DNA from: Patescibacteria group bacterium
GTDB taxonomy: Bacteria; Patescibacteriota; Minisyncoccia; Phycocordibacterales; UBA9973
Direction of reading: 5' to 3'
NCBI GenBank assembly: GCA_028865035.1
Contig: JAGWLB010000003.1
Location: forward strand, 2,247 to 66,246
Length of the DNA: 64,000 bases
This document shows positions 28,759-51,608 of this stretch, in pieces. How positions within the stretch are numbered: the stretch's first letter is position 1; every line of letters starts with the position of its first letter. The position numbers and the translations under genes were made by a program. Under the pieces are notes generated by a model that saw only the letters and a program-made list of their open reading frames with translations, was not told the DNA's origin and searched no databases.

Positions 28759-30132
<1,374 letters not shown>

Positions 30133-30157
30133 TTAATTGATAATGTTTTAATATTTT

Positions 30158-31093
30158 CTAACTTACGCTTGCCATACCGGCACTTATTTCTGATATCTCT
30201 TGGGTGATGCCTGCTTGGCGGGCTTTGTTGAAGACTAATGTCAAATCTCCAATCATCTCCCCTGCGGCTTCACTAGCATTCTTCATCGCGACCATTCTAG
30301 AAGATTGTTCAGAAGCACTCGACTCAAGAACCATCTGGTAAATCTGCATTCTTGTCAGCTTTTCGGCGAGTGACCCTACGAGGGTGCTTATATCTCCGTC
30401 AAACACATAAGGTATATCTTTCGTAGAATCTTTATCTGGTAGAATTTCATTTTTATTATCTTTTTCTTCACCGATGCTTTCAATTAAATCTTTTAACTCT
30501 TGTTTTGATATTGGTAAAAGTTTTCTAACATTCGCACTTTGCGTTAGGGCTGATATAAAATCCGTATAAGCTACATAGACATGGTTGTATTTACCAGCTT
30601 TGTATTCATCTACTATTAGTTTTGAAAGAGGAACAATATCTTGCAAGGAAATATTATTGTCTGGAATCTCTGTAAACGACGCGATAATATTCTGTCCGAT
30701 TCTACGCATAGCCCCATCTCCTTTTTTGCCGACAGTAACAATATCTATCTCAGTGTCTGCCTTAGTATTGGATAGGTTTTTTATCATTGCTAGAGCTTTC
30801 TTGGTCACCTGGCTATTATAAGCTCCACAAAGACCACCATTTGAAGTTATTAACACGAGTAGAGTCTTATTATGATTAGTATGTTCTGTAAAGAATGGAT
30901 GATAAATATCATCAAGGCGACTAGAAAGCGAGGTCAAAAGTTCCCAAGAATATCCAGCATATAGACGAGACGAAAGAGCTCGAGACACGGCCTTCTTCAT
31001 CTTCGAAGCTGCCACGAGCTCCATCGCTTTCGTGATCTTCTTCGTGTTCTTCACACTCTTTATTCGTTGTTTTATTTCTTTTGTACCTGCCAT
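30158..31093 (-). CDS. atpG: F-ATP synthase gamma subunit
   Basis: MAGTKEIKQRIKSVKNTKKITKAMELVAASKMKKA N-terminus and a conserved C-terminal helix. Confidence 0.9.
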   Translation of the reverse strand: MAGTKEIKQRIKSVKNTKKITKAMELVAASKMKKAVSRALSSRLYAGYSWELLTSLSSRLDDIYHPFFTEHTNHNKTLLVLITSNGGLCGAYNSQVTKKALAMIKNLSNTKADTEIDIVTVGKKGDGAMRRIGQNIIASFTEIPDNNISLQDIVPLSKLIVDEYKAGKYNHVYVAYTDFISALTQSANVRKLLPISKQELKDLIESIGEEKDNKNEILPDKDSTKDIPYVFDGDISTLVGSLAEKLTRMQIYQMVLESSASEQSSRMVAMKNASEAAGEMIGDLTLVFNKARQAGITQEISEISAGMASVS

Positions 31094-31102
31094 AAAAAAT
31101 AT

Positions 31103-32605
31103 TTATTTCACAAACCCAGTTTTAAAATCCTCTATTGCTTTTTTAAGAGAAGCTTCACTTTCATCTGTCCACATTTTCTTTTCAATCACATCTTTGTAGA
31201 AATCTTTAGCATTGAGTTGCGTATATTCAAGAAGTCCATCTTCAAATTCTTTAATTTTTTCAACTGGGACGTCATCAAGATAACCTTTGATAAGTGCATA
31301 GAGAATAACTGTCTGGCGTTCTGTAATGACAGGAGAATATTGAGGTTGCTTTAGAACTTCTACGGCTCTTCTTCCACGATCAAGCTGGCGTTTGGTATTT
31401 TCATCCAAGTCTGAACCAAATTGTGAAAAAGCTTCAAGTTCACGGAACTGAGCAAGGTCAAGCTTGAGTGTACCAGAGACTTTTTTCATAGCTTTAATCT
31501 GTGCAGCTGAACCGACACGAGAAACTGAAAGTCCGACGTTTACCGCAGGGCGAATTCCTTTATAGAATAAATCTGTCTCAAGGAATATTTGTCCGTCTGT
31601 GATAGAAATAACGTTAGTAGGAATATAAGCCGAGACGTCTCCAGCTTGGGTTTCAATAATTGGTAATGCTGTAATAGAGCCACCACCGTATTCTTTATTT
31701 TTTCGGCAAGCACGCTCAAGAAGACGTGAGTGCAAGTAGAAGACATCTCCAGGGTACGCTTCACGACCTGGTGGACGTCGAAGCAATAGTGATATCTCAC
31801 GATAAGCTACAGCATGCTTTGACAAATCATCATAGATAATTAGTACGTCTTTACCTTGATCCATAAAGAATTCAGCAATAGAGACTCCAGTATAAGGAGC
31901 GATATATGCAAGCGCTGCCGGTTCTGAGGCTCCAGCTGAAACAATAATTGTATAATCCATAGCGCCTCCTTCCTCTAAACGAGTTTGAAGTTTACGAAGT
32001 TTAGAATCTTTTTGACCGATTGAAACATAAACACAAATCATATCTTGGCCTTTTTGGTTGAGTATTGTGTCTATAGCGATGGCTGTCTTACCTGTCTGAC
32101 GGTCACCAATGATGAGCTCGCGCTGTCCACGACCAATAGGAATCAGTGCATCGATAGCTTTGATACCAGTCGCGACTGGCTGGTCGACACCTTGACGACT
32201 CATAACCCCAGAAGCCACTTTTTCAATAGGAGCTCTCTTATCTGTCTTTATCTGACCTTTTCCATCAATAGGTTCACCCAGAGCATTCAAGACACGACCT
32301 ATTTGAGCGTCTGATACTGGAACAGAAAGAATATTGCCTGTGGCTTTGACTTCGTCTCCTTCTTTAATAGTATGAAAATCTCCCAGAACAATTACTCCGA
32401 CAGAATCTTCATCGAGGTTCAAGGCTACTCCCATTGCTCCCGTAGAGAAGCTGACCATTTCTGATGCTTTTAAATCTGATAGACCAGAGACTCGAGCAAT
32501 ACCATCAAAAACTTCAACAACGTGGCCAACCTTCTCGGCTTTTATGTCGTCTTGGAATTTTTCAATTTGTTTTCTTAAATTTTCTACAATGTGATTTTTG
32601 GCCAT
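31103..32605 (-). CDS. atpA: F-ATP synthase alpha subunit
   Basis: [15 protein letters not shown] Walker A and conserved alpha-subunit motifs. 500 aa. Confidence 0.95.
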
Positions 32606-46757: not shown

Positions 46758-47534
46758 ATGATAAATTTCTATAAATACCACGGAGCAGGAAATGATTTTA
46801 TTATGATAGATAATAGAGATGGTAATTTCGATGTTAAAAATAAAGATTTAGTGAAGTTATTATGCCATCGCAGGTTCGGTATTGGTGCTGATGGTATTAT
46901 TCTAGTAGAAAATGATGCCGATTATGATTTTAGAATGGTTTTTATGAACAACGATGGCAGTATTGGTGCTATGTGTGGTAATGGCGGACGCTGTATAGTT
47001 CATTTCGCCTACCATATTTTAAAAATTGTAAAAGACCCTAAGAATGTAGAATTCATAGCAGTAGATGGTAAGCACCAAGCAGATATAGATGGCGACATCG
47101 TAAAACTCAAAATGCAAGATATAGAAAGCATCAGCACTCGCAATAACCTACCATACATTTGCCAAGGTACGACTCCACACAATATACAATTTGTAACTAA
47201 CCTTAAAGACTTCCCTGTTTTCGAAACTGGCCGAAAAATTCGCTACTTAGATGAAAGTGGAGTCAATGTAAACTTTGTCGAACTTATAGACGGAGTATTC
47301 CATGTTCGCACTTACGAACGTGGAGTTGAAGATGAGACGCTGGCTTGTGGTACAGGTGCAACTTCTGTCGCTATTGCTGTTCATAATAACGGAATGCTAA
47401 AAGAAAATGTAGCTCATATAAAAATGCCAGGTGGTGATTTGAAAGTATCATTTGAAAAAATGCCTGATGACACATACCAAAACATTTGGCTTACCGGTGA
47501 AGCCAAATGTGTGTTTGAAGGCGAATGGGAATAA
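46758..47534 (+). CDS. dapF: Diaminopimelate epimerase
   Basis: F.KYHGAGNDFIMID and the two catalytic Cys regions (MCGNGGRC; LACGTGATS). 258 aa. Confidence 0.8.
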   Translation: MINFYKYHGAGNDFIMIDNRDGNFDVKNKDLVKLLCHRRFGIGADGIILVENDADYDFRMVFMNNDGSIGAMCGNGGRCIVHFAYHILKIVKDPKNVEFIAVDGKHQADIDGDIVKLKMQDIESISTRNNLPYICQGTTPHNIQFVTNLKDFPVFETGRKIRYLDESGVNVNFVELIDGVFHVRTYERGVEDETLACGTGATSVAIAVHNNGMLKENVAHIKMPGGDLKVSFEKMPDDTYQNIWLTGEAKCVFEGEWE

Positions 47535-47561: not shown

Positions 47562-47592
47562 AAAAAAAGAGCCCTTACCGAAGTAAGGGCTC
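47562..47592 (-). terminator. Rho-independent terminator for the minus-strand high-GC gene
   Basis: gagccctta-ccgaag-taagggctc hairpin (47569-47592). On the minus strand it is followed by a T7 run (47562-47568). A second small hairpin gggtc-taa-gaccc lies at 47597-47609. Confidence 0.6.
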
Positions 47593-47641
47593 AAAGGGTC
47601 TAAGACCCAAGATGTAACACGAGGTACAAAGTGCCAAAGGA

Positions 47642-48406
47642 CTATAAGTCGCAGAAGCACAACAAGCAGTCGCCATCGTCCCAGGCAGACTCGAAGTAAC
47701 CGAGGTAGAACCTCCAGACACCGTCCGAGCGGCGGTCCACGTACGGCACCCTATGGCGGCCGTCGGAGTCTTCACAGAGGGTGTCCTTCTCATCGAAGGA
47801 AACTGTCCATTTGCCCACCGGAAACTGGTCCGCTTTGTTGTCTTGCAACAACGTCACGCCCTGTCCGCCCACGAGGAGGGCGTCCTTCTCATCGAAGGAA
47901 ACTGTCCATTTGCCCACCGGAAACTGGTCCGCTTTGTTGTCTTGCAACAACGTCACGCCCTGTCCGCCCACGAGGATGGCTCCCTGCTTCTTCAGGAAGG
48001 TCATGCAGTCTTCACTGGTGACCGTCGAGAGGATTGGGAAGATTCGCACGCGGTACTTCTTGCCAGGCTCCAGCTTGTTCGTCGCTTTCGCGAAGTTCTT
48101 GCTGTTAAGGTCATCGTTGAAGTAGTAGGTGGTCTTCAGCTTCTTGGTCTTCTTGGCGAAGGTGTCGAGCTGGGTGTCGTGCTTGTAGTCTGCCGGCACC
48201 GTGAACTCGAAGTCCTTCACCGCGGGGCCGAAGCTCTGGTCCACCATGGCGAGTTTCTGCAGGATGGGCTTCACTTGCTCTTGCAACGTGCCACCTGCTT
48301 TGATGATTTCCTGAGCCTCATCTTTCGATAAGCCCAACGCACGGACCGCGTCTCTTACGAGATCGGCGATGCGATTTTCTTGGTTTGACGTGATCTTTTC
48401 AGTCAT
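47642..48406 (-). CDS. Hypothetical protein encoded by a high-GC foreign gene; contains a 32-aa internal tandem duplication
   Basis: 254-aa ORF with Actinobacteria-like codon usage (AAG, GAC, TTC, ACC, CTG preferred), whereas the first ~15 codons are AT-richer. AAGGA Shine-Dalgarno 7 nt upstream of the ATG. No family recognised. Confidence 0.5.
   Translation of the reverse strand: MTEKITSNQENRIADLVRDAVRALGLSKDEAQEIIKAGGTLQEQVKPILQKLAMVDQSFGPAVKDFEFTVPADYKHDTQLDTFAKKTKKLKTTYYFNDDLNSKNFAKATNKLEPGKKYRVRIFPILSTVTSEDCMTFLKKQGAILVGGQGVTLLQDNKADQFPVGKWTVSFDEKDALLVGGQGVTLLQDNKADQFPVGKWTVSFDEKDTLCEDSDGRHRVPYVDRRSDGVWRFYLGYFESAWDDGDCLLCFCDL
47784..47975. repeat. Perfect 96-bp tandem direct repeat in two copies (47784-47879 and 47880-47975), inside the high-GC gene
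   Basis: Visible directly: ccttctcatcgaaggaaactgtccatttgcccaccggaaactggtccgctttgttgtcttgcaacaacgtcacgccctgtccgcccacgagga... is repeated in phase, duplicating the peptide LVGGQGVTLLQDNKADQFPVGKWTVSFDEKDA. Confidence 0.85.
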
Positions 48407-48471
48407 CGTTTTATCCTTTTTTGAATGTACAATCCAGAATCTGCTGGAACAGTCGCAATCTTGCTAGCACT

Positions 48472-48500
48472 ATTATATCAAATAACACTCTATTTGTCAA
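48472..48500 (-). promoter_or_regulatory. Perfect consensus sigma70 promoter (TTGACA-17-TATAAT) driving the high-GC gene
   Basis: On the minus strand: tandem TTGACATTGACA, -35 at 48495-48500, 17-nt spacer, and TATAAT at 48472-48477. About 60 nt of 5'UTR with an AAGGA SD. Confidence 0.6.
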
Positions 48501-48591
48501 TGTCAAGGCTAAATGGCAAATATCGTTAGTCCATCTTTCTTTTCTAATTGGTTGATAAAATTGATCTTTCAGGCGATCGTAAACAAATATC

Positions 48592-51372: not shown

Positions 51373-51480
51373 AAATGGTGCCCGAGGTGGGCTATCTTTC
51401 CTTACAGGAACTGTATACCTTTTGCATTTTTTTGAAGCAGAGCTTATAAAAAATAAACAAAAGCTTTTCGATCCCCACAC

Positions 51481-51502
51481 GCACGCAAAGCAGTTTGCGT
51501 GC
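51481..51502 (-). terminator. GC-rich hairpin and U-run downstream of tRNA-Leu
   Basis: gcacgcaaa-gcag-tttgcgtgc, a perfect 9-bp stem. On the minus strand it is followed by gcttttgtttatttttt. Confidence 0.5.
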
Positions 51503-51523
51503 TCTCGCGCAAGCTCTGCTTGC

Positions 51524-51608
51524 TGGTGCCCGAGGTGGGAATCGAACCCACATCCCTTACGAGACACGATTTTAAGTCGTGCGCGTATACCAGTTCCGCC
51601 ACTCGGGC
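51524..51608 (-). tRNA. tRNA-Leu (anticodon TAA), class II with long variable arm, CCA encoded
   Basis: Reverse complement GCCCGAGTGGCGGAACTGGTATACGCGCACGACTTAAAATCGTGTCTCGTAAGGGATGTGGGTTCGATTCCCACCTCGGGCACCA: acceptor GCCCGAG/CTCGGGC, anticodon stem CACGA/TCGTG with loop CTTAAAA, long variable arm, T-arm GTGGG-TTCGATT-CCCAC. Confidence 0.75.

Follow-up and report, generated by a model that had tools for sequence, protein, structure and literature searches.

A GC-rich gene between dapF and gap in a Patescibacteria genome is probably an orphan or remote target of a diversity-generating retroelement

Between the genes dapF (PF01678) and gap (PF00044/PF02800) of a Patescibacteria group bacterium lies a single gene of strongly deviating base composition, which we describe here as a probable target of a diversity-generating retroelement (DGR). 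The gene was examined within a 64,000-nucleotide stretch of DNA (assembly GCA_028865035.1, contig JAGWLB010000003.1, positions 2,247 to 66,246), hereafter called the window, and all positions are counted from its first letter. GC content computed over 200-nucleotide segments is 0.54-0.605 across positions ~47600-48400 and ~0.26-0.44 in both flanks; the rest of the window has 33% GC, and no second 1-kb block with comparable GC behavior was found in the 64 kb. The island coincides with an open reading frame (ORF) on the minus strand (47642..48406) that encodes 254 amino acids. An initial annotation had noted both the sharply bounded high-GC island between dapF and gap and the 254-codon ORF, and was accurate on both counts.

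The GC anomaly of this gene is almost purely synonymous. The ORF has a GC content of 0.558, compared with 0.334±0.036 for the 52 other ORFs of the window (z ~6.3), and its GC at third codon positions (GC3) is 0.784, compared with 0.210±0.049 and a maximum of 0.35 for those same ORFs (z ~11.8). First and second positions are near host values (GC1 0.54 vs 0.46; GC2 0.35 vs 0.33), and therefore the amino acid composition of the protein is not actinobacterial. Codon choice is inverted for every amino acid, with both A and T depleted at third positions (A3 0.125, T3 0.09). The codon usage had been called Actinobacteria-style, a description that fits the high GC3 but neither GC1, GC2 nor the amino acid composition. 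The AT-richer beginning of the gene, which had been assigned to the first ~15 codons, extends over ~40 codons with a GC3 of 0.55, and the remainder has a GC3 of 0.70-0.95. Elsewhere in the window, a second and mild GC rise (0.39-0.46) covers long conserved ORFs at 28759-32605, one of them with ATP-synthase-alpha-like sequence near 31282. There GC1 is high (0.59-0.60) and GC3 only 0.27-0.35; this rise, unlike that of the target gene, reflects ordinary conservation-driven composition.

As the initial annotation had proposed, the gene is equipped with its own expression signals, all on the minus strand. A sigma-70 promoter, TTGACA-17-TATAAT with a TG-extended -10 element, matches the consensus at 12/12 positions (48472..48500), and a second TTGACA overlaps just upstream of it (48506..48501). 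The 5′ untranslated region (UTR) is AT-rich and ~60 nucleotides long (48407..48465), and an AAGGA ribosome binding site (48418..48414) lies 7 nucleotides before the ATG. The 3′ UTR holds a small hairpin, GGGTC-TTA-GACCC (47596..47608), and a GC-rich hairpin, GAGCCCTTAC-TTCG-GTAAGGGCTC, whose 10-base-pair stem and 4-nucleotide loop are followed by T7 (47562..47592), as is characteristic of an intrinsic terminator. An Rfam search of this cassette gave only a sub-threshold suhB/mmgR match to the terminator hairpins (23.7 bits vs a gathering score of 41).

Searches of Pfam, NCBIfam, PHROGs and the PDB with the protein sequence returned only noise, and to that extent the earlier statement that no family could be recognized still stands. 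Nevertheless, a large unnamed family, that of DGR targets, does exist. We recovered 288 homologs at E<=0.01, almost all of which are ~221 amino acids long, corresponding to the protein in the window minus a 33-residue duplication. An exhaustive profile search yielded 1,229 representatives at the 50% clustering level, 891 of them at E<=1e-10, and defined positions 55-220 as the conserved core of the family. All named homologs belong to Patescibacteria (Nomurabacteria, Paceibacterota, Minisyncoccia), as do nearly all of the homologous loci in other genomes, which carry the prefix L below. Two short contigs are binned differently, L002 (JBBIQC010000590.1, 2.3 kb) as an Oscillatoriales cyanobacterium and L017 (CAZZBC010000047.1, 5.9 kb) as a gammaproteobacterium; both are probably mis-binned Patescibacteria rather than true occurrences outside this group. 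Viral contigs of IMG/VR contain no relatives of the gene, and we have set aside the idea of a phage vector on this basis.

The alignment of these homologs reveals a strongly conserved body followed by a C-terminal segment of ~44 residues with a fixed scaffold, DSDGxHRVPxVxRxSDGDWxFxLGxFExDWxxxxCLLCFCD, between whose positions hypervariable residues are interspersed. These variable residues (D/G/H/Y/R/S/N/C/L/F/V) form the set that is reachable from AAC codons. In the window, the corresponding variable repeat (VR) spans ~132 nucleotides (47645..47776, minus strand), encodes ...CEDSDGRHRVPYVDRRSDGVWRFYLGYFESAWDDGDCLLCFCDL and likewise has NNC-type hypervariable positions within the conserved scaffold. 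AlphaFold2 models predict a three-helix N-terminal domain (amino acids ~1-55; 48242..48406) and a divergent C-type-lectin-like alpha/beta domain that includes the conserved core (amino acids ~56-254; 47645..48241), with the VR on the last beta-strands. According to these models, the VR would be displayed on a C-type-lectin fold, although Foldseek found no significant match for the predicted structure. No signal peptide or transmembrane segment is evident, and the product is apparently a small ligand-binding protein that is either cytoplasmic or non-classically exported.

The relationship of this family to DGRs is evident from its relatives. At locus L024, the homolog is followed by a gene for an accessory variability determinant (Avd; bAvd, PF22296) and then by a reverse transcriptase (RT) gene of the RVT_1 family. 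In 14 loci, a ~122-nucleotide repeat of the 3′ end of the ORF, which constitutes the template repeat (TR), is located ~340 nucleotides downstream of the stop codon. The differences between VR and TR in these pairs are biased to adenines, with 205 of the 236 mismatches falling on adenines of the TR, even though the A content of the TRs is ~25%. Furthermore, 10 of the 14 pairs exhibit a fixed difference in the final TGC[T/G]AC, with T in the TR and G in the VR, such that the VR ends in ...TGCTTCTGCGAC and the TR in ...TGCTTCTGCTAC; the TR type in the family resembles GACGGCAACCACAGGGTGCCGAACGTGAACCGCAAC...TGCTTCTGCTAC. This looks like the pair of initiation of mutagenic homing (IMH) sequences, IMH* and IMH, that distinguishes the two repeats of other DGRs, in which case the base in question would have a corresponding role. 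Searches with tblastn located an intact RT gene adjoining the homolog in 10 distinct relative loci (66-79% amino acid identity to the RT of L024) and an RT match in two pieces in L018. The same method detected Avd in the eleven RT-bearing loci and additionally in L008 and L012. Six loci (L004, L005, L009, L019, L021 and L023) have no TR, RT or Avd in the flanks examined.

If these elements operate as other DGRs do, the TR would be transcribed and then reverse-transcribed with random misincorporation opposite adenines, and the mutated complementary DNA would replace the VR, and thus the last ~44 residues of the protein, by mutagenic retrohoming. The 64-kb window, in which the gene has ~47 kb of flanking sequence to one side and ~15 kb to the other, contains no copy of a TR, no RT (as judged by a scan for the YxDD motif and by tblastn with the RT of L024) and no Avd. 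The VR of the window nevertheless aligns to the TRs of L001 and L003. Among 26 mismatches to each of these heterologous TRs, 15-16 are at TR adenines, and the others are located at the 5′ edge or are among a few C>T changes. Because the VR differs from these templates mainly at TR adenines, we conclude that it has probably undergone DGR mutagenesis. The features related to targeting are also intact, including the VR scaffold, both conserved 3′ hairpins and an IMH-like 3′ end, TGCTTGTTGTGCTTCTGCGAC (47648..47668), in which the VR-type G stands in place of the T found in most TRs (TGCTAC). Taken together with the synonymous divergence described below, these observations make it likely that the cassette is the target gene of a Patescibacteria-type DGR, either orphan or remote, and that it is present as a recently imported GC-rich allele. 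As a remote target it would depend on another part of the genome for a DGR that acts in trans, whereas an orphan would have none. DGR components can act in trans, and non-adjacent targets have been documented (PMC5758913).

The cassette is conserved as a unit. Homology to L001, which is linked to a DGR, and to L005, which is an orphan, begins at the promoter (~-100 to -137) and extends ~70-90 nucleotides downstream of the stop codon, to a point immediately after the terminator hairpin and its T-run, where similarity falls to background. Because the homology spans promoter to terminator, exactly one transcription unit of the element, that of the target, is present in the window. The initial view of a compositionally foreign, self-contained unit is supported. 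Alignments of L001, L005 and the syntenic locus L009 show that promoter and gene have been conserved together, and the 5′ UTR is near-identical in these loci and the window. In a comparison with the upstream regions of L001, L004, L005 and L009, the 5′ UTR and the first ~20 codons are nearly identical across genomes (0.87-0.98) even where the gene body has diverged or ameliorated, as in L009. A small stem in the 5′ UTR seemingly covaries (CCAG/CTGG, CCGG/CCGG, TTTCGG/CCGAAA). However, RNAalifold finds only a weak 4-base-pair stem, and for this reason we set aside the idea that the region is a structured RNA. A cis-regulatory element or a recombination anchor is a possible explanation for its conservation.

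The small 3′ hairpin is conserved across L001-L008. Of 23 loci, 20 agree with the window in having a hairpin ~50 nucleotides beyond the stop codon that is conserved in position but not in the sequence of its stem. The exceptions are L002 and L013, where nothing comparable is seen, and L009, whose hairpin is at +21. A T-run follows the post-stop hairpin in nearly all loci, and the loops are heterogeneous. DGR target-recognition hairpins have been described as 7-10 base-pair GC stems with a 4-nucleotide GRNA loop, located 4-34 base pairs from the VR (Guo 2011, PMC3240598). By comparison, the window hairpin has a 10-base-pair stem and a 4-nucleotide loop that is TTCG rather than GRNA, lies ~50 nucleotides past the stop codon and is followed by a T-run. 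We therefore regard it as a terminator that may double as a DGR target-recognition element. We also considered the loop sequence as a marker of lost homing, given that DGR-linked L001, L003 and L007 have GAAA and orphans have TTCG or TTCA, but discarded this idea on finding that DGR-linked loops can also be CTTT, TTTT, TAAA or GAAT.

An unusual feature of the window copy is an in-frame 99-nucleotide tandem duplication within the ORF. The upstream copy (47876..47974, minus strand; amino acids 145-177) occupies the canonical structural position, and the downstream copy (47777..47875; amino acids 178-210) differs from it by a single mismatch (G->A, giving Ala->Thr). Comparison of the repeats reveals 95 exact matches, one mismatch and five matches, rather than one exact block. 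The repeat unit of 33 residues (LVGGQGVTLLQDNKADQFPVGKWTVSFDEKDA/TL) ends 8 nucleotides before the VR and has CTC microhomology at its flanks. No homolog examined has such a duplication, making it unique to the window, and its junction has no match in metagenome contigs. Longer homologs proved to be N-terminal start-codon miscalls without a duplication, which disposes of it as a recurrent family feature. In AlphaFold2 models, the first copy is kept in the fold and the second is extruded as a disordered 32-residue loop (residues 181-212; predicted local distance difference test score, pLDDT, <50) immediately before the VR strands. In addition, the window protein has Cys in place of a nearly invariant Trp, W178 in the numbering of the canonical protein. 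The duplication may have arisen by genuine slippage, possibly as a first lesion of a gene that had been orphaned, or it may be an artefact of assembly created where VR microdiversity breaks assembly graphs; the repeat period, 99, is suspiciously near the k-mer overlaps that assemblers commonly use. A homolog of 205 amino acids (P0103) is 91% identical over its first ~155 residues, ends in a frameshifted reading of the VR and apparently lacks the segment that is duplicated in the window. It therefore seems that this part of the gene, adjacent to the VR, is liable to be rearranged or mis-assembled in other datasets as well.

The position of the gene is old. The neighborhood has the order gatB-DUF1653-gap | dapF-rpiB-rpe-tktN-tktC, with the target gene at the bar. 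Locus L009, from a Nomurabacteria metagenome-assembled genome whose housekeeping proteins are ~59-80% identical to those of the window, has the order gatB-DUF1653-gap-target-rpiB-rpe-tktN, and in the much more distant L004 the order is gap-(defence-like insert)-target-rpiB-rpe-tkt. The location between gap and rpiB-rpe-tkt is common to all three, and the target locus is ancestral. The insert between gap and the target gene in L004 (5842-9653 of the same locus under the label L028) encodes radical-SAM, CYTH and HTH regulator proteins, two EcoRI-methylase-like ORFs and a GmrSD/HNH protein, and looks like a defence-type island at a hotspot where the window has the target gene alone. Synteny around dapF and gap had been suggested as a check, with relatives carrying the gene at this locus at similar GC named as the mark of an ancient acquisition, and half of this holds: the gene is not novel at this site, but the allele is recent.

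Evidence for a recent origin of the allele comes from synonymous divergence. Outside the VR, the window gene has 85-91% nucleotide identity to L001-L005, and identity at 4-fold degenerate sites is 0.70-0.80, compared with 0.31-0.36 expected from composition. For the pair formed by the window and L004, 4-fold identity of the target is 0.72 (expected 0.36), whereas gap, tktN and rpe are saturated (0.17-0.21; expected 0.19-0.23). Similarity to L004 is mosaic, reaching 0.90-1.00 over gene positions 120-450 and only 0.53-0.63 over the first 90 nucleotides. The syntenic copy in L009 is 72% identical to that of the window and has a GC3 of 0.42. Furthermore, a single private synonymous change is seen in the window allele, and it is not from GC to AT, whereas private synonymous changes in the subclade comprise 18 from GC to AT and 3 from AT to GC. 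The recent arrival that the initial annotation had suspected is thus supported both by the 4-fold identity to L004 amid saturated neighbors and by the absence of private GC-to-AT changes.

Target GC3 is 0.76-0.83 in L001-L005, where host GC3 is 0.27-0.56; the excess is intermediate in L006-L010 and absent in distant DGR-linked members, and therefore high GC3 is not a functional requirement of a target. RT genes have the GC3 of their hosts (0.24-0.46) beside targets with GC3 of 0.76-0.81, and GC-richness accordingly belongs to the target and not to the DGR. The RTs of L001 and L003 are saturated (4-fold 0.30 vs 0.26 expected; 70% amino acid identity), whereas their targets are not (4-fold 0.72; 89%). 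Identity between these two loci is high from the ATG through the coding sequence, the 3′ spacer and the TR (1.00), and drops in Avd and RT. We rejected adenine avoidance as the cause of GC-richness, given that A3 and T3 are both depleted, the TRs are ~25% A and GC-richness is missing from distant DGR-linked members. An explanation by high expression or translational selection was likewise rejected, as the highest GC3 of any other window ORF is 0.35 and that of gap is 0.28.

These data are best read as a recent horizontal transfer in which an allele of a GC3-rich lineage displaced the resident one. Such a lineage, with a GC3 of ~0.8, would circulate among Patescibacteria; the window allele would have been imported very recently from another, GC-richer Patescibacterium, would have replaced the resident allele at the ancestral locus by recombination and would have had no time for amelioration, which elsewhere has followed. 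Several observations weigh against the interpretation as a whole. The expected RT and Avd are absent from the window. In the survey of Wu et al. (PMC5758913), moreover, elements in the candidate phyla radiation (CPR) tended to have one target each, and targets at a distance of >100 kb came to light only in another lineage. In addition, we found no host with a GC3 of ~0.8, and the target exceeds even its GC-richest host, which leaves room for a GC-raising process such as biased gene conversion. A tentative and rather unlikely extension is that target and TR form an exchangeable module that passes between distant Patescibacteria without involving the resident Avd-RT and substitutes one allele for another at fixed loci. 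Its synonymous GC would then be elevated above every sampled host through GC-biased conversion or selection tied to this traffic, rather than through one GC-rich donor. If true, Patescibacteria would possess a shared, horizontally traded ‘receptor gene pool’.

Other origins must be weighed against the import of a GC-rich allele. The initial annotation favored host-to-symbiont capture of an actinobacterial gene, and the GC3-rich codon usage does resemble that of a high-GC donor. However, this origin has next to nothing in its favor once the homologs are considered, since the search returned named homologs from Patescibacteria and none attributed to Actinobacteria, GC1 and GC2 are host-like, the gene occupies the same locus in other Patescibacteria, and the family is tied to Patescibacteria-type DGR cassettes. 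Assembly chimerism, in which a GC-rich fragment of another organism was joined into the contig, had been offered as the alternative and is highly improbable. Although the GC boundaries are sharp, the 99-nucleotide tandem duplication is odd and neither the exact target protein nor the neighboring gap protein is on record anywhere else, in L001 and L005 the GC-rich body follows the AT-rich promoter, 5′ UTR and first codons without interruption. In the window these AT-rich elements are continuous with the gap flank, and the syntenic L009 copy, itself next to the same gap gene, has them too, at 0.87-0.98 identity. Moreover, the gene resides between gap and rpiB-rpe-tkt in L004 and L009, and the same GC contrast recurs in independent assemblies.

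A long-term vertical resident whose synonymous GC is actively held high, either by GC-biased gene conversion in a hyper-recombining gene or by selection on mRNA or DNA, strikes us as quite unlikely. Similarity between genomes would then reflect shared codon constraint and frequent small conversion tracts instead of one recent import. This proposal accommodates the synteny conserved in three genomes, the excess of target over host GC3 in most loci (the GC-richest host included) and the mosaic blocks of similarity to L004, and GC-biased gene conversion has been proposed for bacteria (PMC4450053). On the other hand, distant DGR-linked L015, L018, L020 and L022 are at host GC3, so function needs no high GC3, and the syntenic copy in the closest relative, L009, has a GC3 of only 0.42. 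The 18 to 3 bias of private synonymous changes is the pattern that decay, not maintenance, would be expected to produce, and the high similarity between genomes extends to the 3′ UTR and spacer, which are non-coding and beyond the reach of codon constraint. Somewhat more room must be given to a decaying relic, that is, a target orphaned of its DGR and becoming a pseudogene, with the 33-residue duplication, the adjacent Ala->Thr and the Trp->Cys changes as first lesions; we regard this as possible, if on the whole unlikely. RT, Avd and TR are all missing from the 64 kb, the duplication is unique and places a disordered loop before the VR strands in the models, and the altered Trp is nearly invariant. 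L009 illustrates such decay, with an IMH altered to ...TTCTCTGAA, loss of the conserved 3′ UTR and a GC3 of 0.42. Yet the window ORF is intact and in frame, as are the promoter, ribosome binding site, IMH-like sequence, both 3′ hairpins and the VR scaffold; private substitutions are almost absent, and the duplication itself may be an assembly artefact.

Some gene starts near the target locus also deserve comment. A tRNA-Leu gene (anticodon taa; 51524-51608, minus strand) overlaps the 5′ end of the called 545-residue gatB ORF (GTG at 51567), and therefore the true gatB start lies further downstream, probably at the Met of MNKYTTTIGLEIH. A local GC bump at 51400-51600 partly coincides with this tRNA gene. 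The start of dapF (46758, plus strand) overlaps the called GTG start of rpiB (46781, minus strand) by 24 nucleotides (46758-46781). The Pfam match of rpiB begins only at residue 28, and so its real start is probably internal; the two genes are probably transcribed divergently from a very short spacer.

What appeared to be a cross-phylum gene capture has led to an unannotated and very large family (>1,200 clusters at 50% identity) of CPR proteins with a predicted lectin fold that are diversified by DGRs. Such proteins are plausible mediators of episymbiont-host or phage interactions, perhaps through recognition of host or phage surfaces. If our interpretation is correct, the locus provides a clean example of a target, accompanied by its TR in relatives, that is exchanged between genomes independently of the RT, and an extreme GC3 island can flag such traffic. 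Surveys centered on RTs miss orphan and remote targets, which composition combined with the VR-scaffold signature could find. The element itself is of a known kind, namely a Patescibacteria DGR target with a C-type-lectin-like fold, and it is the evolutionary pattern that is unusual. The interest of the locus therefore resides in its extreme synonymous GC signature and in the evidence for target(+TR) modules moving independently of RTs.

Like the variable proteins BPP-1 Mtd, Treponema TvpA, Thermus TaqVP and archaeal AvpA, members of this family have their VR at the extreme C-terminus of the ORF. Also in common with classical DGR variable proteins are the cognate TR with adenine-specific differences, the Avd and the RT of relatives, the IMH-like 3′ end, a hairpin downstream of the VR, which in the window may simply be a terminator, and the predicted C-type-lectin-like fold. 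In contrast, the family has no sequence similarity to Pfam, PDB or other C-type lectin families, its proteins are small (221 amino acids) with a unique three-helix N-terminal domain and neither signal peptide nor transmembrane segment, and the window copy has no adjacent DGR. A significant enrichment of DGRs in CPR bacteria is on record (Roux et al. 2021). The closest parallels are Patescibacteria-restricted DGRs (clade 2, Roux et al. 2021; ‘CPR set’, UVR1-6, Wu et al. 2018), with which this family shares its host range, the target-TR-Avd(-)-RT(+) architecture and targets that lack recognizable domains and have been proposed to be novel C-type lectin variants. This subclade has a target and TR that are far more similar between genomes than the RT, as well as a GC3-rich target beside an RT at host GC3, a combination of which we found no description in the CPR DGR surveys consulted. 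Finally, the VR-bearing gene in the window resides far from any RT, as do the remote DGR targets of Treponema, Legionella and cyanobacterial lineage 4; DGR components are known to act in trans, and the window copy may be diversified in this manner.
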